Shown one piece after another: positions 11,299 to 36,515 of a stretch of 64,000 nt of DNA. The notes under the pieces were generated by a model, which saw only the letters and a program-made list of their open reading frames with translations, did no database searches and had not been told where the DNA came from. The DNA is from an uncultured beta proteobacterium. GTDB taxonomy: Bacteria > Pseudomonadota > Gammaproteobacteria > Burkholderiales > JACQAP01. Position 1 is the stretch's first letter; every line of letters begins with the position of its first letter. The DNA lies in NCBI GenBank assembly GCA_963789945.1, contig CAWBMN010000008.1:131144-195143 (forward strand). The letters run 5' to 3'. Position numbers and translations under genes: made by a program.

Positions 11299-11342
11299 GG
11301 CGCCCGGTCGGCTGCGCGTTAGCAATCGACGCATCCGCAGTC

Positions 11343-13346: not shown

Positions 13347-13363
13347 GTCATGGCGAATCCAAA

Positions 13364-13607: not shown

Positions 13608-13622
13608 ATTAGAGGAGCGTAA

Positions 13623-15107: not shown

Positions 15108-15148
15108 TTCCACGGGAATTTGCCGCGACCGGCATACTGACAGCTTTT

Positions 15149-16059: not shown

Positions 16060-17524
16060 ACGCACGCCGGTGCGCGGCATCGGAATCCTCGTTGCCGTGC
16101 TGGTTGGCGTCTCCGTGCTTGGCGGCTGTGCAACGGTGCAGCGCGAGGCGAGTTTCCCGCAGGTGCAGAGCGCGGTTGCGAATAATCTGGGCCAGAAAAT
16201 CGAGTGGAATCGCGATGGCGAGCGTGAACAACGGACGCAGCAAGCCACGCGCACGCTGCTGCGGGAAAAACTCTCCGCGGAAGCGGCACTACAAATCGCC
16301 CTGCTGAATAACCGCGGGCTGCAGGCACGGTTCGAGGAACTCGGCATGGCGCAGGCCGACCTGGTTGAGGCCGGTTTGCTGGAGAACCCGGTACTAAGCG
16401 CGGGCGCGCTGTTCCAGGATGCCGGTACCGAGATCGACGTGGATATCGTGCAGAACTTCCTCGGCGTGTTCTCGCTTTCGGTACGCAAGAAGATCGGACG
16501 GGCCGCCGCCGAGCAGGTGACGCTGGAAGTCTCAAGAGACGTGCTGAACCTCGCGTCGGAAGTCCAGGCACAGTACTACCGGGTCGTAGGTGACGCCGAG
16601 GCACTGGTGCTGGCACGCCAGATCGTCATCGCGACCCAAGCCGCCGCGGAACTGGCGCAGCGCCAGTACGCCGCCGGCAACCTGAGCAAGCGCGAACAAA
16701 GCTTGCAGCAGGTGTTCTACGCGCAGACGCTGCTGGAAGTCGCGCAAGCTGAAGCACAACTCGACGCCGATCGGGAAAAGCTCAATCGACTCATGGGGCT
16801 GTGGGGTGCGAATACGCGCTGGAGCGTTCCCGACCGGCTCCCGCAGATCCCCGCGACGCTGCCGGCGCTCGACGACGTGGAACGGCAGGCTATCGAACGC
16901 CGTCTCGATCTTGCCGCCGCGAAGAAGGAAGCGGAAGGCCTCACCCAAGCACTCAACCTCGCCCGCCAGTACCGGTGGTTGAGCCCGCTGGGCATCGGTG
17001 TGAAATTCAAACGGGATGCGGACGGGGAGAAATCCTACGGTCCCAAGGTCGAACTCGGGTTGCCGTTCTTCAACCAGGGGCAGGCGCGAATCGCGCGGCT
17101 GGAATCCGAACGCAAACGCGCCGAAGAGCGCGTTGCCGCACTTGCAGTGGACATCCGCTCCGAGGCCCGTGAAACCCGCGGCCGCCTCAACGCGCTCCAT
17201 CAGTCGGTGAGGCATTACGAGAAGGCGCTGTTGCCGCTGCAGCAAACCATCGTGACCGAGACGCTCAAGTTCTACAACGGCATGTTGCTCGGCGTCTATG
17301 ACCTGCTGCTCGCCTCGCAAAACCAGATCCAGACCGGGCGTCAGTACATCGCTGCCAACCGAGACTTCTGGCTGGCCTGGACCGAACTGGAGCACGCGCT
17401 CGGCGGACGGGTCAGCCCCCCGGCAGCAGCGGGCACACCCGAACCACCGCCCAGGCAGCCCACCGAAAGCGACACAGACGCCCCAGCGGACAACTCTCAT
17501 CAACATGGAGACAACCAATCATGA
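16046..17524 (+). CDS. TolC-family outer membrane efflux lipoprotein (CusC/CzcC-like) without an adjacent MFP/RND
   Basis: ATG at 16046. Lipobox VLGGC. 492 aa with the two OEP repeats. Confidence 0.85.
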   Translation: MTIVERTPVRGIGILVAVLVGVSVLGGCATVQREASFPQVQSAVANNLGQKIEWNRDGEREQRTQQATRTLLREKLSAEAALQIALLNNRGLQARFEELGMAQADLVEAGLLENPVLSAGALFQDAGTEIDVDIVQNFLGVFSLSVRKKIGRAAAEQVTLEVSRDVLNLASEVQAQYYRVVGDAEALVLARQIVIATQAAAELAQRQYAAGNLSKREQSLQQVFYAQTLLEVAQAEAQLDADREKLNRLMGLWGANTRWSVPDRLPQIPATLPALDDVERQAIERRLDLAAAKKEAEGLTQALNLARQYRWLSPLGIGVKFKRDADGEKSYGPKVELGLPFFNQGQARIARLESERKRAEERVAALAVDIRSEARETRGRLNALHQSVRHYEKALLPLQQTIVTETLKFYNGMLLGVYDLLLASQNQIQTGRQYIAANRDFWLAWTELEHALGGRVSPPAAAGTPEPPPRQPTESDTDAPADNSHQHGDNQS

Positions 17525-18855
17525 TGACTCGTCGAGACATTCTCAGAGGCGGAGCGGCGCTGTTCGCCGGCGGAGCGGTATCGGCGACCTTCCGCAATGC
17601 CAATGCCGCCGAGAAATCAGCCGCAACCACCAAACCACCCTTGCCCAAACCGCCGGGCAGCCATTACACACCGGTGGTCACCCTCAACGGCAGTACGCTG
17701 CCCTGGAAGATGGACGGCGGCGTGAAAGTGTTTCACCTCACCGCCGAGCCGGTGAAGCGCGAATTCGCGCCCGGAATGGTGGTGAACTGCTGGGGCTACA
17801 ACGGCCAGACGCCGGGCCCGACCATCGAATGCGTGGAGGGCGACCGGGTACGCATCCTGGTTACCAACAAGTTGCGCGAGCACACCACCATCCACTGGCA
17901 CGGCATCTTCCTGCCCAATGGCATGGACGGCGTCGGCGGCCTCAACCAACCGCACATCAAGCCGGGCGAGACCTACGTCTACGAGTTCACCCTGCGCCAA
18001 AACGGCACATTCATGTATCACCCGCACGCCGATGAAATGGTGCAGCTGGCGCTGGGCATGATGGGACTGTTCATCGTGCATCCGAAGAAGCCGGAGAATC
18101 CGCGGATAGACCGCGACTACGGAATTATCCTGCACAACTTCGACGTCAAGCCCGGCACGGCCCGCCCGGACGCGGCGGTCATGACCGAGTTCAACATGTG
18201 GGCCTTCAACAGCCGCGTGTTCCCCGGCATCGATCCGCTTGTCGCGCGATTGGGTGAGCGCGTGCGTATCCGCGTGGCCAACCTGTCGATGCACGAGCAC
18301 CCGATCCACATCCACGGAACCGCGTTTGAAGTGACCGGCACCGACTCAGGCTGGATTCCGCAGACTGCCCGCTACCGCGAAACCAGCATGTTGGTGCCGG
18401 TCGGAAACGTGCGCGTCGGCGAGTTCATCGCCGATGCGCCCGGCGACTGGGCCCTGCACTGCCACAAATCGCACCACACCATGAATGCGATGGGACACAA
18501 CGTGCCCAACATGGTGGGCGTCAGCCACGACGACATCGCCGGGAAGATCGGCGAACTGGTACCGGGCTACATGGCGATGGGCGAGCGCGGCATGGCGGAA
18601 ATGACCGACATGGTGGAAATGGGCATGCCGCTGCCGGAGAACACCCTGCCGATGATGATGGGCGAGGGTCCTTTCGGCCCGCTGGAAATGGGCGGCATGT
18701 TCACGGTGGTGAAGATCCGTGAAGACCAGGCTCCCGGCGACTACAGCGACCCGGGCTGGTACAAGCACCCGCCGGGAACCGTGGCCTGGAAGCTGGAGGG
18801 TGCCGCATCTTCGACACCGGACGAGCCGGCCGGACACAAGGACCACTCGGGATGA
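17521..18855 (+). CDS. multicopper oxidase, Tat-exported
   Basis: Twin-arginine signal MMTRRDILRGGAALFAG. Copper-site motifs HWHG, HPHADE, HIHG and HCHKSHH. 444 aa. Confidence 0.9.
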   Translation: MMTRRDILRGGAALFAGGAVSATFRNANAAEKSAATTKPPLPKPPGSHYTPVVTLNGSTLPWKMDGGVKVFHLTAEPVKREFAPGMVVNCWGYNGQTPGPTIECVEGDRVRILVTNKLREHTTIHWHGIFLPNGMDGVGGLNQPHIKPGETYVYEFTLRQNGTFMYHPHADEMVQLALGMMGLFIVHPKKPENPRIDRDYGIILHNFDVKPGTARPDAAVMTEFNMWAFNSRVFPGIDPLVARLGERVRIRVANLSMHEHPIHIHGTAFEVTGTDSGWIPQTARYRETSMLVPVGNVRVGEFIADAPGDWALHCHKSHHTMNAMGHNVPNMVGVSHDDIAGKIGELVPGYMAMGERGMAEMTDMVEMGMPLPENTLPMMMGEGPFGPLEMGGMFTVVKIREDQAPGDYSDPGWYKHPPGTVAWKLEGAASSTPDEPAGHKDHSG

Positions 18856-19288: not shown

Positions 19289-19371
19289 GTAGTCCTGGGG
19301 CGCGGAAAGACCGGTGACCGACACAGCCACCCGCCAGTCTGCATCCAACTTTGCCCGTCCTGGAGAACGCT

Positions 19372-21450
19372 ATGGCTATGCCATCGGAACAAAAAGCCCC
19401 GCACGTCAAGCCTGAACACGATCATGGTCACGGGCATGCCCGCCACCACGCCAATTCGACGGCAGCGAGCGGTCGGCACGCCGCCGGCGGGCACGATCAC
19501 GCGGCCATGATCGGGGACTTCCGCCGCCGCTTCTGGATATCGCTGGTCCTAACGGCGCCGATTCTCTGGCTCTCGCCGATGGTCCGGCATCTTGTCGGCC
19601 TGCGGGAAGCCCCATTCCCCGGCAGCGAATACCTGCTGCTGGTGCTGTCAAGTGCGGTGTTCTTCTACGGCGGCTGGCCGTTCCTCGCCGGTCTCGCATC
19701 GGAACTCCGGAAGCGCCAGCCGGGAATGATGACGCTGATCTCGGTGGCGATCGCCGCAGCCTATTTCTATTCCTCGGCGGTGGTCCTCGGATTGCCCGGC
19801 ACGATGTTTTTCTGGGAGCTGGCCACACTGGTCGACATCATGTTGCTCGGCCACTGGATCGAGATGAAGTCCGTCATGGGCGCATCAAGCGCCCTGAAGG
19901 CGCTGGTGGAATTGCTGCCAGCACAGGCTCACCGGCTGAAATCCGATGGTTCGATCGAAGATGTTTCTGCGTCCGAGATCCGTCCGGGTGACCGCGTGCT
20001 GGTGAAGCCCGGTGAGAAGGTGCCGACCGACGGCGTGATCATGGAGGGCCGCACCAGCATCAACGAGTCGATGCTGACCGGCGAATCCAAGCCCGTCGCC
20101 CGCAGGCCCGGCGACGAGGCGATCGGTGGCTCGATAAACGGCGAAGGCGCCATCACGCTGGAAATCCGCAAGACCGGCTCGGACACCTACCTTTCGCAGG
20201 TGATTGCGATGGTCGAGAAAGCGCAAGCGTCCCGCTCACGTTCGCAGGACCTCGCCAACCGCGCTGCATCCTGGCTGACTTATATCGCGCTCGGTGTCGG
20301 ACTGGCGACGCTATTTGCCTGGCTGTTCCTGGGCGAGAGTTTCGCTTTCGCAATGGAACGCATGGTAACGGTGATGGTGATCGCCTGCCCGCACGCGCTG
20401 GGGCTCGCCGTTCCGTTAGTGGTGGCGGTCAGCACCAGCATGGCGGCAAAGAGCGGGCTTCTGATTCGAGACCGCGCCGCCTTCGAGCGGGCGCGTAACC
20501 TGAAGGCGGTTGTGTTCGACAAGACCGGTACGCTGACCGAAGGGCGTTTCGGTGTGACTGACATGGTGGCTTTCTCCGGCTCAGATGAGAAAGAGATCCT
20601 GCTTCTTGCGGCAACTCTGGAAAGCCAATCCGAGCATCCGATTGCAAAGGGCATCGTCGCCAAGGCCGAGGAGCTGGGTATCAGGCTTGGGCAAGTGACG
20701 GATTTTCGCAACATCACCGGCCAGGGCGCGGTGGCGAAAGTGGATGGCGCCGAACTGGCCGTGGTAAGTCCCGGCTATCTCGAGCAAGCCGGCATCAGGG
20801 TGAACGAACCGCGCATCACGGCGCTCGCCACCCAGAGCAAGACGGTTGTTTATGTACTGCGCGAGAACCGGCCGATTGGCGCGATCGCGCTCGCCGACAT
20901 CGTGCGCCCGGAGTCCCGTCAAGCGGTCGCACGGCTGAAAGCGATGGGTATCCAGTGCATGATGCTCACCGGTGACAACCGCGCGGTAGCCAAAGCCGTG
21001 GCCGATGAACTCGGGCTCGACGACTACTTCGCCGAGGTGCTGCCCGGCCAGAAAGCCGACAAGATTCGCGAAATCCATTCGCGCGGGCTGACTGTAGCCA
21101 TGGTGGGCGACGGCGTGAACGACGCGCCGGCGCTGGTGGAATCGGACCTGGGCATCGCGGTGGGCGCCGGCACCAACGTGGCGATCGAGTCCGCAGATGT
21201 CGTCCTGGTGCGCAGCAATCCGCAGGACGTCGCCGACATTCTCTGGCTGTCGCGTGCCACTTACCGAAAGATGGTGCAGAACCTGTTCTGGGCCACCGGC
21301 TACAACACCATCGCCATCCCGCTCGCCGCCGGAGTCACCGCAAACATCGGTTTCCTGATGTCTCCGGCACTCGGCGCGGTGTTCATGTCGGCCAGCACCG
21401 TCATCGTCGCCATCAACGCGCAACTGCTGGCGCGGGCGCGCCAGACCTAG
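19372..21450 (+). CDS. copB: copper-translocating P1B-type ATPase, CopB-like (CPH motif, His-rich N-terminus, no CxxC MBD)
   Basis: GGAGA-6 nt-ATG at 19372. N-terminus HVKPEHDHGHGHARHH. TM6 has IACPHALGLA. DKTGTLT and GDGVNDAP are present. Confidence 0.9.
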   Translation: MAMPSEQKAPHVKPEHDHGHGHARHHANSTAASGRHAAGGHDHAAMIGDFRRRFWISLVLTAPILWLSPMVRHLVGLREAPFPGSEYLLLVLSSAVFFYGGWPFLAGLASELRKRQPGMMTLISVAIAAAYFYSSAVVLGLPGTMFFWELATLVDIMLLGHWIEMKSVMGASSALKALVELLPAQAHRLKSDGSIEDVSASEIRPGDRVLVKPGEKVPTDGVIMEGRTSINESMLTGESKPVARRPGDEAIGGSINGEGAITLEIRKTGSDTYLSQVIAMVEKAQASRSRSQDLANRAASWLTYIALGVGLATLFAWLFLGESFAFAMERMVTVMVIACPHALGLAVPLVVAVSTSMAAKSGLLIRDRAAFERARNLKAVVFDKTGTLTEGRFGVTDMVAFSGSDEKEILLLAATLESQSEHPIAKGIVAKAEELGIRLGQVTDFRNITGQGAVAKVDGAELAVVSPGYLEQAGIRVNEPRITALATQSKTVVYVLRENRPIGAIALADIVRPESRQAVARLKAMGIQCMMLTGDNRAVAKAVADELGLDDYFAEVLPGQKADKIREIHSRGLTVAMVGDGVNDAPALVESDLGIAVGAGTNVAIESADVVLVRSNPQDVADILWLSRATYRKMVQNLFWATGYNTIAIPLAAGVTANIGFLMSPALGAVFMSASTVIVAINAQLLARARQT

Positions 21451-21491: not shown

Positions 21492-22013
21492 ATGAACATG
21501 CCGAGGTCACGCGTTCACTTCGCAGAGCACATGAAACCCTTATCCGCTCTGGTCAACACGCCGGAGTTCAACGTCGTTATTTTCTCGCTTCTGCTGAATC
21601 TGGCATGGGAGGTCTGGCAGGTGCCGTTCTTCCTGGGGATGGCCGACCAGCCGCACTGGCTGGGCGTGAAGGCCTGCACACAGGCTACTTTCGGCGATGC
21701 GGGGATTGCGCTGGCCGCGTTCTGGGTCACGGCTCTCATTGCCAGGTCCAGAACCTGGATCATGCGACCGAGCAGGTCGGACATTGCAGTCTTCATCGGC
21801 GTCGGGCTTGTAGCAACAATTGCCTTTGAAACACTGGCCACCGGAGCACTCGAGCGCTGGGCCTATAGCGACGCGATGCCGCGCCTGCCGGTCCTGGGGA
21901 CCGGATTGCTGCCGCTCTTGCAGTGGCTGGCACTTCCGCCGCTCGTCCTGTGGTTCGTCCGCCGACAGATTGCCCCTGGATATCGTGAGCAATCTGACGG
22001 GAAAGCAACTTAG
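21492..22013 (+). CDS. hypothetical membrane protein (about 4 TM)
   Basis: 173-aa ORF with hydrophobic segments, directly downstream of copB. No family recognised. An alternative start is at 21531. Confidence 0.5.
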   Translation: MNMPRSRVHFAEHMKPLSALVNTPEFNVVIFSLLLNLAWEVWQVPFFLGMADQPHWLGVKACTQATFGDAGIALAAFWVTALIARSRTWIMRPSRSDIAVFIGVGLVATIAFETLATGALERWAYSDAMPRLPVLGTGLLPLLQWLALPPLVLWFVRRQIAPGYREQSDGKAT

Positions 22014-23299
22014 GCGGGGTTAAGTTTCGGGTGGGTCTCTTCGCCCCAGAACCAGAGAGCGCCGCCGGACAGCATCATGGCAATGGCTACGAACCAGAAT
22101 CCGCTTTCGATGGCTCCGGTGGCGCTGGCCGCGAGTCCCATGCCCAGACCACCAATAGCGTAGCCGATGTCGCGCCAGAAACGGTAAATCCCGATAGCGG
22201 AGCCGCGCCATTCCGGATGGGCAATATCCGCGACCGCGGCGCTCAGATTCGGGTAGAGCAGAGCCATTCCGAGCCCGCTCAGTCCGGCACACAGCGCCCA
22301 CCACCATATGTTCTCAAAAACGAGCATCAGGCCCACGCCGGTCCCGCAGAGCCACATGCCCCAGACATTCAACATGTGCCGGCCTACATGGTCGGACAGT
22401 TTCCCGGAAAACAGCTGCGCCCCACCCCATACGAAACCGTAGGCGCCGATCACCCAGCCGATGCCGCTGATGCTGACGCCGTAGCGGTAAAGAAAAACCG
22501 GGAAGAACACCCATACCAGCGCATCGACGAACTTCTCGACCAGACCAGCCTGGCACAGCGCCAGCAATCGTTTGTCACGCCAGGACATGAGGGTAAATAC
22601 TTCCCAGGTCGACGCCTGGTTCGAGATATTCCTTGGGTACCGCGCCGCGTGTTTGGCCGGTTTGGTCGAATGCCTCGCCGCCTCGGCGCGCGCCCAGGGT
22701 CGCGTATCCTTGACCCACAACAATGTGAGCGCAATGGCCAGCACAATGACGGTCAGCCCGAACACGGCGACTCCCTGGCGAGGCCCGAGTGCGCCAGCTA
22801 GGTAGGCGGTAATGATTCCTGCGCCCGCTACGCCGACGTAACCCGAAAACTCATTCAATCCGATGGTGAGTCCGCGCTGCTCGGGGCGGGTGATGTCGAG
22901 TTTTGCAGTCTGGGTCATTGACCAGGTGAGCCCCTGGTTGACGCCGAGCAGAACCGTCGCTGCCACGATCCAATTCCAGCTTGGCCCCCACAGGAGCATC
23001 GGCGGAATCGGTAACGCCACTAGCCAGCCGAGCAACAGCACCCGCTTGCGCCCGATGCGTTCAGAGAGTCGGCCGGCAACGAAATTCATTACGCCTTTCA
23101 CGAAGCCGAACGCCACCACGAAGGCGGTGAGCAGCACGAAAGAATTGCGTGCCAGCCCGAACTCGCTCTCCGCTAGAGTGGGCACCACGGTGCGCATCAT
23201 GCCGATGGTGAAGCCCACCAGCAGTACCTGCAGCAACTGATGAGCGAACTGCCCGAGGTTATGGCGAATTCCGTGCAGGAGTTCGCTGGCGTGAGACAT
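22010..23299 (-). CDS. MFS transporter
   Basis: 429 aa, about 12 TM, with the MFS loop motif GRLSERIGRKR. Confidence 0.85.
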   Translation of the reverse strand: MSHASELLHGIRHNLGQFAHQLLQVLLVGFTIGMMRTVVPTLAESEFGLARNSFVLLTAFVVAFGFVKGVMNFVAGRLSERIGRKRVLLLGWLVALPIPPMLLWGPSWNWIVAATVLLGVNQGLTWSMTQTAKLDITRPEQRGLTIGLNEFSGYVGVAGAGIITAYLAGALGPRQGVAVFGLTVIVLAIALTLLWVKDTRPWARAEAARHSTKPAKHAARYPRNISNQASTWEVFTLMSWRDKRLLALCQAGLVEKFVDALVWVFFPVFLYRYGVSISGIGWVIGAYGFVWGGAQLFSGKLSDHVGRHMLNVWGMWLCGTGVGLMLVFENIWWWALCAGLSGLGMALLYPNLSAAVADIAHPEWRGSAIGIYRFWRDIGYAIGGLGMGLAASATGAIESGFWFVAIAMMLSGGALWFWGEETHPKLNPA

Positions 23300-23322: not shown

Positions 23323-24042
23323 TCAGCCGGCAATGTTGGCCGCAACAATCTGGTCCATGTTGGCGGGACGCAGCGGGATCTCGCGCACCACGTATTCAAT
23401 GAATTTTTCCCGGTCGTTGATGGACAGGGCCGGATTCCAGCGCTTCTCGAACCCGAGAGTCGAGGACGGCTTGCCAGAGAGGCCGGCACCGCAAACGCTT
23501 CCCGCCTGGTGGCCGGGAAAGATCTCCAGCGTATCGGGCAGCGGCAGAATCCGATTCCGCAGCGTATCGAAGAGGATACCGGCCATTTCGCGCTCCCGCC
23601 CCGCCAGGTCCGGCCTGCCGACTGCGCCGACGAAGAGCGTATCCCCGGTCAGGACAAACCACGGGTCACCGCCGCGGCGCTTGTCGGTGACTACGAGCGA
23701 CATGCCGTCCTTCGTGTGGCCCGGGGTGTGCATGATCTTGAGTATCGTATTGCCGGCTTCGATGGTCTGGCCATCATGCAAAGGCGTAAACGGGAACTTC
23801 ACGAAACCCCTGTTGCTCTCGTGCAGGCAGTAGGCCGCACCAGTCATCGTCGCCAGTTTGCGACCGCCCGAGTAGTGATCGGCATGGATATGGGTGTCGA
23901 TAACATGGGTGATTTCGGATTTGGCTGTGCTCGCCTGCTCGATGAACCAGTCCTCGTCCCCGGCCACCACATCGACCGCGACAGCTTTGCCGAGTGTCCC
24001 GCAACGGGGCGGCGGGCCGGGCGACGGCAGATGACGCCACAT
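23323..24042 (-). CDS. MBL-fold metallo-hydrolase (persulfide-dioxygenase-like)
   Basis: THIHADH, HTPGHT, GDTLFVG..GRPDL and a PGHQAGSVCG...STLGFEKRWN tail typical of type II/III PDO-like MBL proteins. The N-terminus is short and atypical. Confidence 0.8.
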   Translation of the reverse strand: MWRHLPSPGPPPRCGTLGKAVAVDVVAGDEDWFIEQASTAKSEITHVIDTHIHADHYSGGRKLATMTGAAYCLHESNRGFVKFPFTPLHDGQTIEAGNTILKIMHTPGHTKDGMSLVVTDKRRGGDPWFVLTGDTLFVGAVGRPDLAGREREMAGILFDTLRNRILPLPDTLEIFPGHQAGSVCGAGLSGKPSSTLGFEKRWNPALSINDREKFIEYVVREIPLRPANMDQIVAANIAG

Positions 24043-24059: not shown

Positions 24060-24276
24060 TCACTCGCATGAAGATGTCGGACCACAGGATTGCATTTGCT
24101 GCTTGGGAGGGCACGACACAGTGCCGTAGCTACAGAACACGCAGCAGTCTCCCGGATCCGGGCGGAGAAGCGCTCTTGCAGTTTGTACACTCATAAAAGA
24201 ACAGACATGCGTCGGTCGGCATGATCTCTTCCTTCTCAAAGCCGCACTTTGGACAGGTAATCACACTTTCCAGCAC
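24060..24276 (-). pseudogene. GDCCVxC-domain small metal-binding protein, frameshifted as sequenced
   Basis: GTG at 24276 gives MLESVITCPKCGFEKEEIMPTDACLFFYECTNCK. After one extra nt near 24174, the +1 frame continues ALLRPDPGDCCVFCSYGTVSCPPKQQ...*, with the stop at 24062-24060. The span is 217 nt. Confidence 0.75.
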
Positions 24277-24455
24277 AGGCGGATATTGTTCATGTTTAAC
24301 CTAGGCAATACCGTAGCGGATCAACAAGCGAGTCGGCAAAAGTCTTTCCGACGGACTTCTGAAGCTCGGGACGACGGCGTGACATCAAAGGTGCGCGCGG
24401 CTCGCTGAATCCGGAAAGCCCGGATTGACGTATCTCAAGACATCATCAAGTCGCC

Positions 24456-24485
24456 TCGACATTGTTCCTGTCCTTACCCTAAAAT
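24456..24485 (+). promoter_or_regulatory. candidate promoter for the cus operon, with the dyad TACCC-N6-GGGTA over the -10
   Basis: TCGACA-18 nt-TAAAAT. The -10 lies inside tTACCCtaaaatGGGTAt. Pattern match only. Confidence 0.25.
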
Positions 24486-24515
24486 GGGTATAGCTACCCT
24501 GTTGACGAAGGGGGA

Positions 24516-24893
24516 TTGGTGAATTTCAGCAGTTTCCGAATTCGTCGTGCAATCTGCCGCTTCCTCACGGCAGGGATGCTTTTTGCCCAGGCAATCGGCA
24601 TCGCATATGCCTGCATCGAGGCCGCGCCTTCGCCGACCATGGCGTTTACGCAAAACGATCACGACGGCGATTGCGGCAAGACTGTCAACCAGAACGCCTG
24701 TCTGCAACAGTGCAACGCGGAAGATCAGAGCACTGCCCAGGCCCAGGTCGCGGTTGCGGCGATGCCCGCCATCGCGGTACTGAGCGTTCCGGTGGCGCCC
24801 GACCGCGGTGCCTGCCCGGCCGTTACGCTGGTGTCTTTCGCGCATTCCCACGATCCTCCTCCCTCGATCCGCTTCTGTAGTTTCCAGCTTTAG
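24516..24893 (+). CDS. small Cys-rich protein heading the cus operon (CzcI-like position)
   Basis: GTG start after an AAGGGGG RBS. 125 aa with an N-terminal hydrophobic segment, several Cys, and a C-terminal HDPPPSIRFCSFQL. No family is confidently recognised. Confidence 0.45.
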   Translation: MVNFSSFRIRRAICRFLTAGMLFAQAIGIAYACIEAAPSPTMAFTQNDHDGDCGKTVNQNACLQQCNAEDQSTAQAQVAVAAMPAIAVLSVPVAPDRGACPAVTLVSFAHSHDPPPSIRFCSFQL

Positions 24894-24964
24894 CCCTCGC
24901 AAGCACTGAATCCGCCGCGTTAGCGGCTGTTCGTGTTTTCCTTGCGGAGGCATCATGGAATTCC

Positions 24965-26374
24965 TTGGATTTCCCGGTAGCGGCAACCGTTGCCGCACCC
25001 ATTAAATTTGCGTGGATCAGTTCGTCTCGCGTATTTCGTCCGGATCGCGAAGCGATTCGCCGGAATTTCCGTAGAATCGTCCTCGCCATCCTGGCAGGCG
25101 CAATTGTTCTCGGCGGTAGCGTTTCCGCCGCCGAGGCGCCGCTGACGCTCGCCGAGGCGCAACGTCGCGCAGTGGAACGTTCACGCCAGACATCGGCACA
25201 GGACCTTGCTATTGCCGCCTCGCGAGAAATGGCGTTGGCCGCAGGGCGGTTACCCGACCCCGTGCTCACACTGGGGATCGACAACCTGCCGATCGATGGC
25301 CCCGATCAATTCAGCCTTACAAACGACTTCATGACGATGCGCCGCATCGGAGTGATGCAGGAGTTCACGCGTTCCGAAAAGCGTCAACTGCGCGCCCAGA
25401 GATCGGAACGCGAGGCCGAAAAGTCCGTCGTGGAGAAGGCAGCTACAGTCGCCTCGATCCAGCGCAATTCCGCGCTGGCCTGGCTCGACCGCTACTACGC
25501 CGAGGCATCGGCAGCGGTGATTGCGCAGCAAGCCAGGGAGGCCAAGCTTGAAATTGTGGCCGCCGAAGGTGCCTACCGTGCCGGCCGCGGTAATCAGGCC
25601 GACGTCTTCGCGGCGCACAGCGCGCTGGTTGGATTGGAGGTTCAGGCAAGCGATCTTGACCGCCGAATCCGCACCGCAACGATCAACCTGGCTCGCTGGA
25701 TAGGTGAGGGAGCCGACGCGCCGTTGGCGGGCAAACCCGCGATCGATTCCATTCGTCTGGATACTGGTGCGCTCGACACCCAGCTCGCCCATCACCCGGA
25801 GATCACCATTCTCGCCAAGCAGGAAGAGATTGCGTCGACAGAGGCCAGGATGGCCCAGGCCGAGAAAAAGGCGGACTGGAGCCTGGAGGTTGCGTACCAG
25901 AAACGGGGCCCTTCTTACTCCGACATGATCTCGGTCGGCGTTTCCATCCCATTGCAGTGGGACCAGAAGAACCGCCAGGACCGGGAGTTCGCAGCCAAGC
26001 TTGCGCTGGCCGAACGGGCCAGGGCCGAGCATGAGGAGTCGCTGCGCGCGCACGTCGGCGAAGTGCGGGCGATGATCGCGGAATGGGAAAACGGCCGCGA
26101 CCGCCTGGCACGCTATGAACGTGATCTGGTTCCGCTCGCGAGGGAGCGCACCAAGGCAGCGCTCGCCGCCTACCAGGGCGGCAAGGCGAATCTGTCCGAC
26201 TTGCTTCTGGCTCGCCGCAACGAAATCGAAATACGCATGCAGGCGGTGCAATTGGAATCCGACATTGCGCACCTGTGGGGGCAGCTTAATTTCCTGATCC
26301 CGGACGGCGCCGGAGCGACTCATGCGAGCGTTCCGGCGCAGCCAAGCGCGAACCGGGGCAAGGAGCCAAGATGA
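24965..26374 (+). CDS. cusC: TolC-family outer membrane factor of the Cu/Ag efflux system
   Basis: 469-aa ORF from TTG at 24965 with OEP repeats. The signal peptide RRNFRRIVLAILAGAIVLGGSVSAAEA begins about 30 codons in, so the start is uncertain (see findings). Confidence 0.85.
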   Translation: MDFPVAATVAAPIKFAWISSSRVFRPDREAIRRNFRRIVLAILAGAIVLGGSVSAAEAPLTLAEAQRRAVERSRQTSAQDLAIAASREMALAAGRLPDPVLTLGIDNLPIDGPDQFSLTNDFMTMRRIGVMQEFTRSEKRQLRAQRSEREAEKSVVEKAATVASIQRNSALAWLDRYYAEASAAVIAQQAREAKLEIVAAEGAYRAGRGNQADVFAAHSALVGLEVQASDLDRRIRTATINLARWIGEGADAPLAGKPAIDSIRLDTGALDTQLAHHPEITILAKQEEIASTEARMAQAEKKADWSLEVAYQKRGPSYSDMISVGVSIPLQWDQKNRQDREFAAKLALAERARAEHEESLRAHVGEVRAMIAEWENGRDRLARYERDLVPLARERTKAALAAYQGGKANLSDLLLARRNEIEIRMQAVQLESDIAHLWGQLNFLIPDGAGATHASVPAQPSANRGKEPR

Positions 26375-27939
26375 AAACCAGAAATCTCCTTCTCGCGCTT
26401 GCCGCTGTAAGCCTCCTCGGCGCCGCCGGTTATGGCCTTTACTGGGTCGGCATGAACCGGGGCATGAAGATAACGGAATCGACTCCTGGCTTGGCACCCG
26501 CCGGCGGCGGCCCCCAACAAAAAGTCCCCGCAGATAAGAAGATCCTGTACTGGCATGACCCGATGGCGCCAGGGCAGAAGTTCGACAAGCCGGGCAAATC
26601 GCCATTCATGGACATGCCGCTGGTCCCCGTCTACGCCGATGGCAATGGCGACGAAGGCTCGGTAACGATCAGCCCGCGCGTGCAACAGAACCTGGGCGTG
26701 CGTACGGCCGAGGTAACGACGGGCACTCTGGCAGCAGCGGTGGAAGCGGTGGGTACCGTAGCCTTCAACGAGAGGGATCAGGCTGTAGTGCAGGCGCGCA
26801 GCAACGGCTTTGTTGAGAAGCTCCATGTGCGGGCGCCACTCGACCCTGTGCGCAAGGATCAGCCGCTGGCGGAGTTGTACGTCCCCGAGTGGGTCGCGGC
26901 GCAGGAAGAGTACCTCTCCGTGCGGCGCATGACCGGCACCCGGTTGGAAGCGTTGGTGGATGGCGCCCGTCAACGCATGCGTCTTGTTGGCATGACGGAA
27001 CAGCAGATCCGCCTGGTCGAGACTACCGGCAAGATCCATTCGCGATTGACGGTGAGTGCCCCGATCAGCGGCGTCGTCGCGGAACTTGGTGCGCGCGAAG
27101 GCATGGCAGTGATGGCGGGAGCGACGCTATTCCGAATCAACGGGCTCGATACCGTCTGGGTAAACGCGGAAGTCCGCGAGGCCCAGGCAAGCGAGGTGCG
27201 GCCCGGCAATCTGGTCGAAGCGCGAACATCCGCACTACCCGGCGCCACGTTCAAGGGTCGCGTCAATGCCATCCTGCCTGAGGTCAATCCTGTGACCCGC
27301 ACGCTCAAGGCGCGAGTCGAATTGGCGAATCCGAACGGAAAACTGGTGCCGGGGATGTTTGCCACGGTCAACTTCGTGCCCGCCGCGCGCAAGGAAGCCC
27401 TCCTGGTGCCGACCGAGGCGGTAATCCGGACCGGAAATCGCAGCGTCGTCATCGTCGCGCAGGGCGACGGGCAATTTGCTCCGGTCGATGTGGAAATCGG
27501 GATGGAAAGCGGGGGTCGGACCGAGATCCGGAATGGGCTCGAAGCCGGCCAGAAAGTCGTGGTGTCCGGCCAGTTCCTGATCGATTCGGAAGCAAGTCTC
27601 AGGGGAACCGCAACACGCATGGGCGATGCCCCGGTACCGCAAGGCGGGACGGCCGGTAGCGGGACACATCGAGCGCAAGGGAAGATCGAGCGCATTGGCA
27701 AGGACGCAGTCACGATATCGCACGGCGCAATCCCATCATTGGAGTGGGAGCCGATGACCATGGACTTCGGGCTGCCGGCGAACGGGCTTCCCGGGGACTT
27801 CGCGGTGGGTGACACGGTCACGTTCGAATTTCGCGAAAACAGGCAGGGCATGTTCGAAATCGCGACCATCACGCCAATAGCCCGGGCGCCGGCGCACCCG
27901 GGACATGGCGAAGGCGACGTGCCAGGAACCGCGAAATGA
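26371..27939 (+). CDS. cusB: RND efflux membrane fusion protein CusB with a fused C-terminal CusF-like domain
   Basis: YWHDPMAPGQKFDKPGKSPFMDMPLVP at the N-terminus. The last ~90 aa contain VTISHGAIPSLEWEPMTMDF, a CusF-type metal site. 522 aa. Confidence 0.9.
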   Translation: MKTRNLLLALAAVSLLGAAGYGLYWVGMNRGMKITESTPGLAPAGGGPQQKVPADKKILYWHDPMAPGQKFDKPGKSPFMDMPLVPVYADGNGDEGSVTISPRVQQNLGVRTAEVTTGTLAAAVEAVGTVAFNERDQAVVQARSNGFVEKLHVRAPLDPVRKDQPLAELYVPEWVAAQEEYLSVRRMTGTRLEALVDGARQRMRLVGMTEQQIRLVETTGKIHSRLTVSAPISGVVAELGAREGMAVMAGATLFRINGLDTVWVNAEVREAQASEVRPGNLVEARTSALPGATFKGRVNAILPEVNPVTRTLKARVELANPNGKLVPGMFATVNFVPAARKEALLVPTEAVIRTGNRSVVIVAQGDGQFAPVDVEIGMESGGRTEIRNGLEAGQKVVVSGQFLIDSEASLRGTATRMGDAPVPQGGTAGSGTHRAQGKIERIGKDAVTISHGAIPSLEWEPMTMDFGLPANGLPGDFAVGDTVTFEFRENRQGMFEIATITPIARAPAHPGHGEGDVPGTAK

Positions 27940-30900
27940 TCGCGAAGCTCATCCGTTGGTCGATCGCCAATCGCTTCCTGGTGTTGCTCGCTACGCTGAT
28001 GCTCACGGCGTGGGGCGTCTGGTCGTTGTCGCGAAACGCCGCTCGATGCGATCCCCGATCTGTCGGACGTGCAGGTCATCATCCGCACGACTTATCCGGG
28101 CCAGGCACCGCAGATCGTCGAGAACCAGATCACCTATCCGCTCACCACGACCATGCTCTCGGTACCTGGGGCGAAGACAGTGCGCGGCTATTCGTTCTTC
28201 GGCGATTCTTTCGTTTACGTGCTGTTCGAGGATGGCACGGATCCTGTTCTGGGCGCGATCCCGCGTGTACTCGAGTACCTGAACCAGGTGCAATCGCGTC
28301 TGCCGCCGCAGGCGAAGAACCGTCCTCGGGCCGGACGCCACCGGCGTCGGCTGGATCTACGAGTATGCGTTAGTGGACCGCAGCGGCGAGAATGGACCTG
28401 TCGCAACTACGCGCACTGCAGGACTGGTTTCTCAAGTACGAACTCAAGGCCGTACCGAACGTGTCGGAAGTGGCGAGCATCGGCGGCATGGTGCGGCAGT
28501 ATCCAGATCGTGCTCGAGCCGGACAAGCTGCGCGCTTACAACATCCCGCATGGTAAGGTGATCGAGGCGGTTCAACGTGCGAACCAGGAAACCGGCGGCT
28601 CGGTGCTGGAGTTGGGCGAAGCGGAATACATGGTGCGCGCGTCGGGCTATCTGCAGATCGCTCGACGACTTCCGCAAGATTCCGCTGACGACGACCGATG
28701 CAGGGGTCTCGGTGCGGCTGGGTGACGTGGCGCGCATCCAGATCGGCCCGGAGATGCGGCGCGGCATCGCGGAACTGAACGGCGAAGGCGAAGTCGCCGG
28801 CGGCGTCATCGTCATGCGCTCGGGCAAGAACGCGCTGGAAACCATCGAGGCGGTGAAGGCAAAGCTGGAGCAACTGAAGCCCGGCCTGCCAGCCGGGGGT
28901 CGAGATCATCCCGACCTATGATCGTTCAAGCCTGATCAAACGGGCAGTGACGAATCTCGAACGAGAAGCTGATCGAGGAATTCGTCGTCGTCGCCCTCGT
29001 ATGCCTGGTGTTCCTGTTCCACATCCGCTCTGCCTTCGTCGCGATCGTCTCCCTGCCGCTGGGGGTCTTGGTCGCCTTCACCGTCATGACTTACCAGGGC
29101 GTGAACGCGAACATCATGTCGCTGGGCGGCATTGCGATCGCCGTCGGCGCCATGGTCGATGCCGCGGTGGTGATGATCGAGAATGCCCATAAGCACATCG
29201 AAGCCTGGAACCACGACGCATCCCGGCGAGACCCTGAAGGGCGAGACGCGCATTGGCGGGTGATTGGGGATGCCGCGGCTGAAGTCGGGCCGGCGTTGTT
29301 CTTTTCGCTGCTCATCATCGTGCTGTCGTTCATTCCGGTGTTCACGTCTGGAGGCGCAGGAAGGGCGCCTTTTCTCGCCGCTTGCCTTTACCAAGACCTA
29401 CACCATGGCGGCGGCGGCGGGCCTTGCGGTGACGCTGATCCCGGTGTTGATGGGTTACCTCATCCGCGGGCGCATCCCGGCGGAGCGGAAGAACCCGCTC
29501 AACCGCTTCCTGATCGCGCTCTATCGGCCGATGCTCGACACGCGTACTGCGCTTTCCCGAGACAACCACGGTTGTCGCCGCCGTCGCTGGCGGCCGTCGC
29601 CACGCTCTGGCCGGCTGGGACAACTTGGCGGCGAGTTCATGCCGCCGCTCGATGAAGGCGACCTGCTCTATATGCCTTCAGCGCTGCCGGGCATTTCCGC
29701 GGGCAAGGTAGCGGAGTTGCTGCAGCAGACCGACCGGCATGATCAAGACCGTACCGGAGGTGGCAAGCGTGTTCGGCAAGGCAGGCCGCGCGGAGACCGC
29801 GACCGATCCGGCGCCATTGGAAATGTTCGAAACCACCATCCAGTTCAAGCCCCGCGACCAGTGGCGACCCGGCATGACGACGGACAAGCTGGTCGAGGAA
29901 CTGGATCGACATCGTCAAGCGTGCCGGGACTGTCGAATATCTGGGTGCCGCCGATCCGTAATCGCATCGACATGCTGGCCACCGGCATCAAGAGCCCTGT
30001 TGGCGTAAAGGTGGCAGGAATGAGCCTGGCGGAGATCGATCGCATTGCCGCGGAGGTCGAGCGCGTCGTAAAGCGCGTGCCGGGCGTCTCGTCCGCGCTG
30101 GCTGAACGGCTGACGGGCGGGCGATATGTGGACGTAAAGATCGATCGTGATGCCGCGGCACGCTACGGCATGAACATCGCCGACGTGCAGGGCATCATCT
30201 CGGCGGCGATCGGCGGTGACAACATCGGGGAGACGGTCGAGGGACTGCAACGCTTCCCCATCAATGTACGCTATCCGCGCGAAGTGCGCGATTCGGTCGA
30301 GAAACTGCGCCAGCTTGTCGATATCTGACCGACCGCGGAGCGCAGATCCGGCTTGGCGACGTTGCGGCGATCCAGATCAACGACGGCCCGCCGATGCTGA
30401 AGAGCGAAAACGCCCGATTTCGGGCTGGGTGTACATCGATATTCGGGGACGCGATCTCAGTTCCGCGGTGCGCGACATGCAGCAGGCGGTGGCGAAAGAG
30501 GTGCGGCTCCCGGCCGGCTACTCGATCTCCTGGTCTGGCCAGTTCGAATTCCTGGAACGCGCGACGGCGAAACTGAAAATCGTCGTGCCGGCCACACTGC
30601 TCATCATCTTCGTGCTGCTGTACCTGACCTTTCAGCGCGTCGATGAAGCATTGCTGATCATGGCCACACTGCCGTTCGCCCTCGCGGGCGGCATCTGGCT
30701 GCTTTGGATACTCGGGCACAACGTCTCGGTGGCCAGCGCGGTAGGGTTTCATCGCGCTCGCCGGCGTGGCGGCGGAGTTCGGCGTGATCATGCTGCTGTA
30801 CCTCAAGCATGCCTGGGAGGCGCGCCTGGCCAAGGGCAAGACCAGCGAGGTCGATCTGCTCGAAGCCATACGTGAAGGCGCCGTGCTGCGGGTGCGTCCC

Positions 30901-31130
30901 AAGGCGATGACCGTAGCGGTGATCATCGCCGGCCTGTTGCCGATCATGTCGGGACCGGCACCGGCTCGGAGGTCATGCAACGCATCGCCGCACCGATGGT
31001 GGGCGGGATGATCACCGCACCACTGCTGTCGATGTTCGTGGTGCCGGCGGTGTATCTGCTCTTGCGTCGGCCGCGCGGTTTGCGCATCGCGCATCCGGTC
31101 CAGACAGCAACGGGCCATGAAGCCGCGTGA
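27936..31130 (+). pseudogene. cusA: HME-RND Cu/Ag efflux pump CusA, interrupted by about 22 frameshifts as sequenced
   Basis: CusA homology runs continuously but hops among all three forward frames, through ORFs 27936, 28069, 28373, 28577, 28947, 29008, 29264, 29739, 30216, 30394 and 30766. Start MIAKLIRWSIANRF, end ...[10 protein letters not shown]..., stop at 31128. Confidence 0.9.
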
Positions 31131-31366
31131 TGTGCGACTGCCGGACGGCCATCGGCTCAACCGCCGCCGGCTGATTGAGGCTTTGCCTCCTCAGAGACCG
31201 GAACCGGACTTGGGAACACCTGTCAACCTTTCATCCTGTTACGCAGGTGGATGCGGACGAGTATATTTGCAGGGAAAGCGCCCAGCCTACTCGAGGGTAT
31301 CGCGTTAAATGGCAGCTTCGTAACCATAATGTAGTGTTATCAACCAAACCGCCATAGGAGTGAAAA

Positions 31367-31645
31367 ATGAACGATAGCAAGCGAAATGCAATGAAAGCTC
31401 TCTCGGGTGCGGCACTTGCAATAACCGCGGCCGGATTGTTCCTGGGCGGTACCGCGGCCGCCGTTGCAGCGGATACGAAGGAAGCAAAAGTGCAATGCGC
31501 GGGCGTCAACTCGTGCAAGGGCAAGAGCGACTGCGCGACCGCCACCAGCGCCTGCCACGGGCAGAACGCCTGCAAGGGCCAGGGATGGGTGAAGATGACC
31601 GAGAAGCAGTGCCTCGAAAAAGGCGGGAAAGTGGAAAAGAGCTGA
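31367..31645 (+). CDS. bufferin-type (DUF2282/BufA-like) Cys-rich secreted peptide precursor
   Basis: AGGAG RBS. Sec signal ...[10 protein letters not shown]. The mature ~57 aa carry 6 Cys in [13 protein letters not shown]...[12 protein letters not shown]...C, with a Lys-rich tail. Confidence 0.55.
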
Positions 31646-31674
31646 AACCGATTTAGCAGGCGCTCGCAGCAGGC

Positions 31675-33201
31675 TCAGTCCGCGGCGAGCGCCTCGGCTT
31701 CGATTTCGGCAAGCTGCGGCACCGACAGTTCGATGCCGAGCTTGTTCCAGTTCCTGATCTCGTCGCGCAGTTCGGCCGCAGTGAGGGGGTTCGCGGCGAG
31801 CCAGCGCGCATCCAGCTCGACGGTGAACGTGCTCTTCTTTTTCGATGCATGGATCGCCGGCAGCCGCACTTCGGAGTGGCTGCGATGCATCAGCGCCGCC
31901 AGCCGCAACGCGACCAGCAGTGTCCAGTCGGCGTCCTTGGCGACCATCCCGCGCAGCTTGTCGAGCGAACCGCGGTGCGCCAGCACCAGCAGCGACAGGT
32001 GTGCCTGTTCCATCTTGGAGAAACCCGGCATGTCGGCGTGGCCGATGATGTAAGCGGAGTGCTTGTGGTATCCGGAATGCGCTACGGAAAAACCGATCTC
32101 ATGCAGGCGCGCCGCCCAGGACAACATCTGCATCGGGTACTCGCGTTGCGCCTTGTCGCCCCCCGCCAGCTGCTCGAATAGTTTCAGCGCCAGTCGTTCG
32201 ACCCGATGCGCATGGGTGGACTCGACGTGGTAACGCTTCATGAACTGGCGCACCGTCAGTTCGCGCATGTCGCGACGATGCGCCCGGCCGATCATGTCCC
32301 AGAGGATGCCCTGGCGCATCGCGCCGTTTGCGAGCGCCATGTGTTCCACGTCGAGTTCAGCAAAGATCGCGCTCATGATGGCGAACCCGCCGGGCAGCAC
32401 CGCAACCCGGTCTTCCCGCAATCCCGGCAGATCCGATTTAGCAGCGTCGCCGGCCTTGAGCAGTGCGCCGCGCAGACGCTCCATGCCTTCGGCGGTGATT
32501 CCCGATTCGCTCCAGCCATTGGCTTCAAGAATGTCTCCGATCGAACGCGCGGTGCCGGAGGAGCCGACCGCCTGCTGCCAATGCTTGCGCGAGAACTGCT
32601 TGCGGATCGTTTCCACTTCGATGCGGGCGGCCAGCTCCGCTTGTTTCATGCTGGACTTGCCGATCCTGCCGTCGGGAAAGTACCTGAGGCTGTAGCTGAC
32701 GCAGCCCATGTACAGGCTCTCGAGTTTATGCGGCTGATTGCCGGCACCGATGATGAATTCGGTGGAGCCGCCGCCGATGTCCACCACCAGACGCTTTTCC
32801 GGAGCAGCCGGCAGGCTATGTGCGACGCCCAGGTAGATCAGCCGCGCTTCCTCGCGTCCGGCCACGACTTCGATCGGGAAGCCGAGGGCGGCCTCGAACC
32901 GGGGCATGAATTCGCCGGCGTTCTTTGCCACCCGCAGGGTGTTGGTGCCGACCGCGCGCACCGCGCCTGGCGGCAGTCCGCGCAGGCGTTCGCCGAAGCG
33001 TTTCAGGCATTCGATCGCGCGCGCCTGCGCCGCATCGTCGAGGTGCTTTTCGGGGGTCAGGCCGGCGGCGAGCCGTACCGGCTCACGCAACGAATCGAGG
33101 GGATAGATCTGGTCGTCGACAACGCGTCCGACCTGGAGCCGGAATGAGTTGGATCCGAGGTCGACTGCCGCAATGGTCGGGGGCGTTTCCATCACGGCCA
33201 T
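31675..33201 (-). CDS. ppx: exopolyphosphatase (Ppx/GppA family)
   Basis: 508 aa, IAAVDLGSNSFRL..., DIGGGSTE, and a C-terminal HD-like region. Confidence 0.93.
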   Translation of the reverse strand: MAVMETPPTIAAVDLGSNSFRLQVGRVVDDQIYPLDSLREPVRLAAGLTPEKHLDDAAQARAIECLKRFGERLRGLPPGAVRAVGTNTLRVAKNAGEFMPRFEAALGFPIEVVAGREEARLIYLGVAHSLPAAPEKRLVVDIGGGSTEFIIGAGNQPHKLESLYMGCVSYSLRYFPDGRIGKSSMKQAELAARIEVETIRKQFSRKHWQQAVGSSGTARSIGDILEANGWSESGITAEGMERLRGALLKAGDAAKSDLPGLREDRVAVLPGGFAIMSAIFAELDVEHMALANGAMRQGILWDMIGRAHRRDMRELTVRQFMKRYHVESTHAHRVERLALKLFEQLAGGDKAQREYPMQMLSWAARLHEIGFSVAHSGYHKHSAYIIGHADMPGFSKMEQAHLSLLVLAHRGSLDKLRGMVAKDADWTLLVALRLAALMHRSHSEVRLPAIHASKKKSTFTVELDARWLAANPLTAAELRDEIRNWNKLGIELSVPQLAEIEAEALAAD

Positions 33202-34877: not shown

Positions 34878-35001
34878 GGTCCTGCAGCGTCTGAAACTGC
34901 CTGTCAAGCATAGCGTCAACGCCTCATAGGCACAAATTAAGATATCCGGTTGCGCCCGTTCGTTCCCGGCTGTTACGCTCGAAAGAACCTTGGGAGACGC
35001 G

Positions 35002-36515
35002 ATGAAGACCGATTACCTGGAAAGAATCCTGACTGCGCGCGTCTACGACGTTGCGGTCGAAACTCCGCTCGAGCTGGCTCCGGCACTGTCGCGCCAGGCT
35101 CGGCAATACCCTGCTGCTCAAGCGCGAGGACATGCAGCCGGTGTTCTCCTTCAAGCTGCGCGGCGCATACAACAAGATGGCTAACCTCAGTGCTGCCCAG
35201 CGCAAACGCGGCGTGATCGCCGCCTCGGCGGGCAATCATGCGCAAGGCGTGGCGCTGGCGGCAAATCACCTGCGCTGCCGCGCCACCATCGTCATGCCCG
35301 CGACCACGCCGCAGATCAAGATCGCGGCCGTGGCGGCGCGCGGCGCGCGGGTGGTGTTGTTCGGCGACTCCTACGACGAGGCCTACGCGCACTCGCTGAA
35401 GATCGCCAGGCGCGAGAAGCTCACTTTCGTGCATCCCTACGACGACCCGGACGTCATCGCCGGGCAGGGCACCATCGGCATGGAAATCCTGCGCCAGCAC
35501 GGCGGCCCGATCGACTGCCATTTTCGTTGCCGTCGGCGGCGGCGGTTTGATCGCCGGGATCGCGGCTTACGTCAAGCGCCTGCGTCCGGAGATCCGGATC
35601 ATCGGCGTCGAGCCGGTCGATGCCGACGCGATGGCCCGCTCCCTTGCTGCCGGCCACAGGGTAAAGCTGGCGCAGGTGGGGCTCTTTGCCGATGGCGTCG
35701 CCGTCAAGCAGGTCGGCGTCGAAACCTTCCGTCTTTGCAGGGAACTGGTCGACGAGATGATCCTGGTGGACAACGATGCCATCTGCGCCGCGATCAAGGA
35801 CGTATTCGAGGACACCCGCTCGATTCTGGAACCCGCGGGCGCGCTCGCGATCGCCGGTGCCAAGGCGTACGCCGAGCGCCGCAGGCAGAAAGGCCAGACC
35901 TATGTCGCGGTCGCATGCGGGGCCAACATGAACTTCGACCGCCTGCGCTTCGTCGCCGAGCGCGCCGAACTGGGCGAGAGACGCGAGGCCATCCTGGCGG
36001 TGACGATCCCCGAGCGCCCCGGCAGCTTCAAGCAGTTTTGTTCGCTTCTGGGCGCGCGCAACGTCACCGAGTTCAACTATCGCTATGCCGATCCCGCGCA
36101 AGCCCATGTGTTCGTCGGCGTGCAGGTGCGCGACCGCAATGAGACCCGCAAGCTGATTGCGCGGTTGCGCCGCAAGAAGCTGCCGACGCTCGATTTCAGC
36201 GACAACGAGATGGCCAAGCTGCATGTGCGCCATCTGGTGGGCGGCCGCGCGCCCTCGGTCGAAAACGAGAGGTTGTACCGTTTCGAGTTCCCGGAGCGCC
36301 CGGGAGCGCTGATGAAATTTCTCGACAGCATGAGTCACGACTGGAACATCAGCCTTTTCCACTACCGCAATCACGGTGCCGACTACGGGCGCGTTCTGGT
36401 GGGAATGCAGGTCCCGCCGCGCGACCAGGCGGCGTTCCGCAGATTTCTCTCGCAACTGGGCTATGCGCACTGGGACGAGACCCGGAACCCTGCTTATTCG
36501 CTGTTTCTGGCCTAA
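35002..36515 (+). CDS. ilvA: biosynthetic threonine ammonia-lyase (threonine dehydratase), carrying two +1 frameshifts as sequenced
   Basis: GGGAGA RBS and ATG at 35002. Homology continues from frame 1 to frame 2 at about 35096, and from frame 2 to frame 0 at about 35516. The span is 1514 nt (504 codons plus 2 nt). PLP motif SFKLRGA. Two C-terminal ACT-like regulatory repeats. Confidence 0.85.

Follow-up and report, generated by a model that had tools for sequence, protein, structure and literature searches.

We found that a small gene at the end of a copper-resistance block, in the 64-kb stretch of DNA that was analysed (the window), is a functional, conserved bufA2 under purifying selection that stands apart from any gene for the enzymes that modify bufferin precursors. 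Its product belongs to the bufferin 2 family (BufA2, Buf_6/12Cys), and the gene appears to be fixed at the 3' end of cusCBA in an uncultured Burkholderiales lineage. By analogy with characterised bufferins, we infer that this stand-alone precursor is functional, that it is modified in trans and that it acts as a periplasmic copper buffer together with the Cus system; we put the probability of this reading as a whole at about 0.6. The roles assigned to the individual cysteines, copper binding and co-expression with cus would follow from the same analogy. Bufferins have only recently been recognised as a copper-defence system, and a very widespread one; whether precursors encoded far from the enzymes are modified in trans or work unmodified is a question that the field itself has raised (PMC12452194).

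The initial annotation of this DNA had proposed a 92-aa ORF with a ribosome-binding site, a Sec signal cleaved near AVA/AD and six cysteines in a duplicated pattern, and all of these features are borne out (Table 1). The gene begins with ATG, and the Shine-Dalgarno sequence that precedes it occupies invariant columns in the alignment of homologs. By inspection of the sequence, the predicted signal has an n-region carrying K5, R6 and K10, an Ala/Leu/Gly-rich hydrophobic stretch from residue 11 to 32, and A32-V33-A34 followed by A35-D36 at the probable cleavage site; Sec signal peptides are known from the BufA2 family (PMC11626156), and the peptide conforms to this pattern. The cysteines of the core are arranged as C44-AGVNS-C50-KGKSD-C56, C63-HGQNA-C69 and C82, exactly as had been claimed.

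Table 1. Features of the bufA2 locus and its copper-resistance neighbours, in window coordinates.
Feature	Position	Strand	Remarks
Outer-membrane factor	15791-17524		Copper block
Multicopper oxidase	17521-18855		Copper block
P-type ATPase	19351-21450		Copper block
cusC, outer-membrane factor	24965..26374	+	Pfam OEP
cusB, membrane fusion protein	26371..27939	+	Pfam HlyD_D23, HlyD_D4, CusF_Ec, HMBD
cusA, RND copper/silver efflux pump	27936..31130	+	Split over several frames (~8)
Conserved upstream segment	31259..31355	+	Travels with bufA2; clade-invariant TCAACC (one exception, see text) ~21 nt before ATG
Shine-Dalgarno AGGAG	31356..31360	+	6 nt before bufA2 ATG
bufA2	31367..31645	+	92-aa BufA2-family (Buf_6/12Cys) periplasmic bufferin-type metallophore precursor, stand-alone copy
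Predicted Sec signal peptide	31367..31468	+	aa 1-34 or 1-35, by sequence inspection
Core peptide, ~58 aa	31469..31642	+	Six invariant Cys, duplicated C-x-G-x-N-x-C-K-G motif
G+C-rich hairpin between convergent bufA2 and ppx	31655..31697	.	MFE fold, 13-bp stem, z = -1.94; overlaps ppx 3' end
ppx, exopolyphosphatase	31675..33201	-	Pfam Ppx-GppA; convergent housekeeping neighbour, outside the system

A full-length match to NCBIfam NF050166, the equivalog model for "BufA2 family periplasmic bufferin-type metallophore", places the peptide in the bufferin 2 family (score 95.9 bits, cutoff 60, E = 1.2e-27; aligned to positions 1-78 of the 79 in the model). This score falls inside the range of the MNIO-linked precursors, which reached 80.9, 83.9 and 100.5 bits on the same model, and a BufA1 protein from a related contig (L012, 1319-1588) reached only 27 bits. 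The initial annotation was therefore right to call the product a bufferin-type precursor. However, it had likened the peptide to DUF2282/BufA1, and because a Pfam search gave no PF10048 (DUF2282/BufA1) match at E ≤ 1, we dropped that label; the six cysteines of the peptide also differ from the four-Cys architecture of BufA1/DUF2282. The remaining Pfam matches, to DUF7640 and PheRS_DBD3, were below threshold, and there was no Pfam match to CusF_Ec (PF11604) that would place the peptide among the CusF-type chaperones. A PDB sequence search with the family profile retrieved no match, and an AlphaFold2 model of the peptide made from a 28-sequence alignment was unusable (mean pLDDT 46, pTM 0.23).

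The bufferin 2 of Caulobacter vibrioides (BufA2, CCNA_03001) shares with the window peptide a Sec signal, a core of ~60 residues and six conserved cysteines, and the window peptide resembles the Buf2 family in its match along the whole of NF050166, its Cys-Lys motifs and its copper-stress gene context. In Caulobacter, BufA2 is exported through Sec, a disulfide joins CysI and CysVI, and the four central cysteines each lose 4 Da as they are converted to 5-thiooxazoles (PMC11626156). BufB (MNIO) and BufC (DUF2063) are required and sufficient for this modification, copper binding and copper protection both depend on the heterocycles, and 1:1 copper binding and 5-thiooxazoles are known for both Buf1 and Buf2 of this organism (PMC11626156). 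The Caulobacter gene lies in an operon with bufB2 (MNIO) and bufC2 (DUF2063), whereas neither is present in the window, where the gene follows cusA; and modification and copper binding have been demonstrated in Caulobacter, whereas for the window peptide they are predictions.

Homology searches retrieved 380 homologs of bufA2 (E ≤ 1e-3), and the identical 92-aa protein is encoded on 13 other contigs that bear synonymous differences. Relative to the window gene, dN/dS of the core was 0.03-0.22 in most comparisons within its clade, with a maximum of 0.45 for the most divergent locus. Given this number of homologs, the exact conservation of the protein on 13 contigs and the purifying selection, the gene is not a chance ORF. 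In an alignment of 28 homologs, all six cysteines, G46, N48, K51-G52, G65, N67, K70-G71, G73 and W74 were invariant.

We placed the gene on a neighbour-joining tree of 86 BufA2 copies, 53 of them orphan and 33 MNIO-linked. The window gene fell in a clade of 15 species-level Burkholderiales loci, every one of which is orphan over the flanking DNA available (up to 10 kb on each side). Three more clades were likewise made up entirely of orphan copies (L025/29/30/31/38; 14 Polyangia loci; 7 Methylocystis loci), and MNIO-linked copies were interleaved among the all-orphan clades. No core position separated the 53 orphan from the 33 MNIO-linked copies, and C50-K-G and C69-K-G are kept in both groups.

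For the search for modification enzymes, ORFs around 83 related loci were clustered, and HMMs were built from the two clusters found directly 3' of the precursor, which Pfam confirmed as MNIO (PF05114, 385.6 bits) and DUF2063 (PF09836, 67.8 bits). Neither HMM matched any six-frame stop-to-stop segment (40 aa or longer) of the 64-kb window, a search that is robust to frameshifts. The gene thus stands without MNIO and DUF2063 across 31 kb upstream and 32 kb downstream, as the initial annotation had stated, and the adjacent PF05114 and PF09836 genes that define a canonical bufA-bufB-bufC cluster are missing from the locus. The window also held no second BufA2 copy and no BufA1-type gene. Relatives of at least ~66% identity, which form the all-orphan clade, were no different: none had an MNIO or DUF2063 gene in flanks that reached 10 kb, or less where contigs were short. 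Sizeable proportions of Buf1 and Buf2 precursor genes that are not associated with MNIO have already been reported (PMC12452194), and the orphan arrangement is therefore less surprising than had been assumed. We regard the window gene as an instance of the same phenomenon as those stand-alone precursors, for which the authors propose either modification in trans or none (PMC12452194, Fig. 3d-f).

Canonical bufA2-DUF692-DUF2063 clusters (L093, L096, L097, L100, L103, Pseudomonas putida pKF715B and a Thiothrix subterranea plasmid) carry the same core motif, match the same model and are often found near copper genes (multicopper oxidase, HMA protein, LpqE-like PCuAC). Their precursor genes sit immediately upstream of MNIO and DUF2063, whereas the window bufA2 has no adjacent enzymes. 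The canonical precursors of Burkholderiales are 84-85-aa lipoproteins with a lipobox Cys, in contrast to the predicted A-x-A signal peptidase I site of the window peptide, so the two kinds of precursor differ outside the core. In related soil Burkholderiales MAGs, the canonical cluster occupies a conserved site, argB-HSP20-bufA2(lipoprotein)-MNIO-DUF2063-LpqE-like-PBP5 (canonical clusters with a lipoprotein bufA2: L093, L096, L100 and L103); the syntenic site (argB-HSP20...PBP5) was absent from the 64-kb window. A 92-aa ORF near the canonical cluster in L097 proved to be unrelated.

We propose that a Sec-exported precursor of ~92 aa would give rise to a ~58-residue periplasmic, copper-binding core of the bufferin 2 family. 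The gene would share a transcript with cusA or be expressed from the conserved segment that precedes it, and in either case the peptide would be produced together with the pump. If it resembles Caulobacter Buf2, C44 and C82 would form a disulfide, and C50, C56, C63 and C69 would become 5-thiooxazoles able to bind Cu(I)/Cu(II). With no MNIO or DUF2063 gene nearby, this conversion would have to depend on a BufB/BufC pair whose genes lie elsewhere, most probably within a canonical bufA2-MNIO-DUF2063 cluster, and it would take place in the cytoplasm before export. The modified peptide would then sequester excess periplasmic copper next to the Cus pump.

The rival that survives best, unlikely in our judgement but to be taken seriously, is that the window gene encodes an MNIO-independent BufA2 paralog, exported and unmodified, which would bind Cu(I) through cysteine thiolates or disulfide exchange and serve CusCBA as a dedicated buffer or chaperone in the periplasm. 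The orphan clades would then be lineages freed from the need for BufB/BufC. The existence of several deep all-orphan clades, in which no MNIO gene occurs within the available flank (up to 10 kb), suggests that the location of the gene has long been independent of the enzymes. The tight link to an efflux operon would fit a chaperone-like role for which six cysteines could serve without heterocycles, and the absence of modification has been explicitly left possible for stand-alone precursors (PMC12452194). We nevertheless favour modification in trans. A published survey counted 864 complete genomes that encode a Buf_6-12Cys precursor, and every one of them also has an MNIO gene (PMC12452194, Table 3). 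Two MAGs pair an orphan copy with a canonical cluster: JBJXFN01 has an orphan of the window clade (L020) and a bufA2-MNIO-DUF2063 cluster on another contig (L033), and JBGQCF01 has the same pairing (L047 and L040), although such co-occurrence is only as good as the binning and is no proof that the orphan peptide is a substrate of the enzyme. Orphan and MNIO-linked copies cannot be told apart by any core residue, and both keep the C-K-G recognition motif in full; BufA2 substrates have been classed as "Cys-Lys", with the Lys modelled against Asp251 of BufB2 (PMC13097082), and this Lys after Cys does not differ between the 53 orphan copies and the 33 linked to MNIO. In BufA1, recognition relies on the core and can do without the signal peptide (PMC11626156), which argues in the same direction, as do the canonical clusters in related soil Burkholderiales MAGs. 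An unmodified copper-binding role also sits poorly with the dependence of copper binding and protection on thiooxazoles and BufB/BufC in Caulobacter (PMC11626156), and with a CusB that already has a CusF chaperone domain of its own in the window.

In L033 (10001-12277), two bufA2 genes flank the MNIO-DUF2063 pair, one in the operon (-) and one convergent (+). With the cus-linked copy (L020), the MAG to which L033 belongs thus has three precursors and one visible enzyme pair. Homologs of the L033 MNIO were traced to DASZTG, DASUFB, CAMDKM, DASVNF, DASZQJ and JBDTRK, none of which is an assembly with a clade orphan.

A wider proposal, which we consider doubtful, is that orphan BufA2 clades such as this one are either a functionally distinct, MNIO-independent class of Cys-rich periplasmic copper proteins that have turned into dedicated accessory subunits of metal-efflux operons (cusCBA in the window), or remote clients of a single MNIO/DUF2063 pair. 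If they were remote clients, bufferins would form a distributed RiPP pathway, with precursors embedded in, and co-regulated with, different copper-resistance operons.

The gene lies at the end of a copper block, as the initial annotation had placed it, downstream of an outer-membrane factor, a multicopper oxidase, a P-type ATPase, cusC, cusB and cusA, and with ppx on the opposite strand 29 nt past its stop codon. Attachment to cus is a property of the clade: cusA was directly upstream of bufA2, on the same strand and 110-240 nt away, in 12 of its 15 loci. The gene 3' of bufA2 is not constant: it is ppx in seven of the loci and a kinase/response-regulator gene in four others. In a relative at 90% identity (L009/L010), the upstream genes were a multicopper oxidase, CusF, CopA and DUF6328, not cusA.

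The CusB of the window has HMBD at its N-terminus and CusF_Ec at its C-terminus, an arrangement that joins the periplasmic chaperone and the membrane fusion protein in one polypeptide. The cusCFBA operon of E. coli encodes CusF, a Cu(I)/Ag(I) chaperone of the periplasm whose ligands are Met, His and Trp, not Cys or thiooxazoles. Like CusF, the bufA2 peptide is predicted to be a small periplasmic metal-binding protein whose gene lies in or next to a cus operon, and CusF is a plausible functional analogy for it. The two differ in that they have no sequence relationship, and the CusF domain of the window is instead fused to CusB.

The stand-alone arrangement and the two readings of it, trans-modified or unmodified, were already stated in 2025 (PMC12452194). 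Two points appear not to have been reported there: the grouping of orphan copies into stable monophyletic clades, and the consistent position of the window clade's gene at the 3' end of cusCBA. The conserved link to cusCBA appears to be the new element. Taken alone, the locus is a known-family member in an arrangement already reported in general terms, and the advance over the known bufferin literature is a modest extension. As a cusCBA-attached, stand-alone clade under strong purifying selection, it offers a clean test case for modification in trans against function without modification, and also for a possible functional hand-off from a periplasmic copper buffer to an RND pump.

The initial annotation had described cusA as broken and had considered that bufA2 might be the remnant of a disrupted operon. 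In the window, cusA is indeed split into ~8 frames. Compared with the intact cusA of L002, it carries 24 one- or two-base insertions and 2 deletions, none of them in homopolymer runs; with these 26 indels removed it has 1,056 codons, 0 stops and a dN/dS of 0.116. The L002 contig encodes the identical bufA2 peptide after an intact 1,056-aa CusA. L001, a contig of 133 kb with 96.5% identity to the window, has an independent set of 26 insertions and 5 deletions in cusA (dN/dS 0.097). Of the 85 indels between the window and L001, 75 fell in window 24100-30950 (cusC, cusB and cusA; L001 2720-9600), where there were also ~40-100 mismatches per kb; after 31 kb, the mismatches fell to 2-24 per kb. The indels in this hot-spot are single-base, lie outside homopolymers and, when each contig is compared with the intact L002, are biased towards insertions. 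Strain heterogeneity in the 24.1-30.95 kb block is a plausible cause of the hot-spot of indels and mismatches. Frameshifts also affect housekeeping genes: ilvA (threonine dehydratase, 34990-36515) is in three frames in the window and intact (504 aa) in L001, and for ppx the situation is reversed, with the intact copy in the window and the broken one in L001. Since each of these genes is broken in one contig only, both long contigs carry scattered frameshift errors. Given the purifying selection on cusA and the insertion-biased, single-base nature of its indels, the frameshifts are most likely assembly (consensus) errors and not pseudogenisation.

That bufA2 is a non-functional remnant of a bufABC operon, left beside a decaying cus operon, is therefore very improbable. 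The fragmented cusA and the lack of buf partner genes nearby would suit such a history; but the break in cusA is almost certainly an artefact of assembly, the peptide is identical on 13 contigs and evolves under clade-wide constraint, and the arrangement is kept over 15 species-level loci, with bufA2 directly preceded by an intact cusA (1,017-1,110 aa) in five of them, L012, L018, L019, L020 and L028. We rejected the remnant reading on these grounds. A misassembled or collapsed region that conceals an adjacent MNIO-DUF2063 pair, so that the gene would not be a true orphan, has a negligible probability: the cus block is a hot-spot of indels and mismatches in two long contigs and local assembly quality is poor, but the cusA-bufA2 and bufA2-ppx junctions recur with the identical peptide on independent JGI, ENA and Logan short-read contigs (L002-L008) and are reproduced in relatives at 90% identity, and on the bufA2-ppx side the window and L001 agree well (2-24 mismatches per kb, almost no indels).

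We examined the sequences that flank bufA2 on either side. The ~110 nt directly upstream of the gene are conserved in L009 despite its different upstream gene, and the segment at 31259..31355 may be a promoter and 5' UTR that belong to bufA2 itself. Within it, TCAACC at 31339-31344 is invariant in the clade with the sole exception of L020, and it might be a -10 or a 5' UTR element. Some of the canonical bufA2-MNIO clusters of Burkholderiales (L093, L097, L103) have a similar TCAAC(C/A) 19-22 nt ahead of the ATG. We rejected this element as a sign that orphan and canonical genes are co-regulated, as it is lineage-restricted and was found upstream of none of the 33 MNIO-linked loci in the broad set. 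MerR-type promoters with a 19-nt spacer and ECF-type GTAAC-N16 promoters were likewise rejected, their spacing and sequence being inconsistent across the clade. A scan of 30900-31900 for sigma-70 promoters (16-18 nt spacer) and terminator consensus sequences found nothing, and an Rfam search of the upstream segment returned no family. On the other side of the gene, the hairpin at 31655..31697 may conceivably be a terminator common to bufA2 and ppx; it has no T-run, and the terminator consensus scan did not call it.

Several further observations concern the surroundings of the cus genes. Immediately upstream of cusC, the window has a 125-aa Cys-rich ORF (24516-24893, +) without a Pfam match, and ORFs of similar size without a Pfam match lie at the equivalent position in L001 (3142-3504) and L012 (3218-3592); this ORF may be a conserved, uncharacterised first gene of the cus operon. 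Homology between the window and L001 ends at window position 24099 (L001 2720). Upstream of this point, the window encodes an MFS transporter (22010-23299, -) and a metallo-beta-lactamase-fold protein (23323-24042, -), and L001 has DsrE, an HTH-rhodanese protein and a cation-diffusion facilitator on the corresponding side. Position 24099 is thus a strain-variable cargo boundary just before the cus operon. The GC profile of the window is flat at ~0.62 and has no signal of a compositional island. Further upstream lies a candidate ORF of 591 aa (13338-15113, -) with no Pfam match at E ≤ 1e-5.

Sigma factor genes have been reported only in Buf1 clusters (2025 survey, PMC12452194). In L103/L104, an ECF sigma and zf-HC2 anti-sigma pair is found directly upstream of the canonical bufA2 cluster. 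L012, a 192-kb Betaproteobacteria contig, carries both the orphan BufA1 gene used above and a bufA2 (10001-10255) in the cusCBA-bufA2 arrangement. MerR-MerC-thioredoxin genes lie directly 3' of this bufA2, and the contig also has a truncated second bufA2-like fragment (further coordinates for these features, 11223-12664 and 18579-18686); no MNIO gene was present within 10 kb of any of them.
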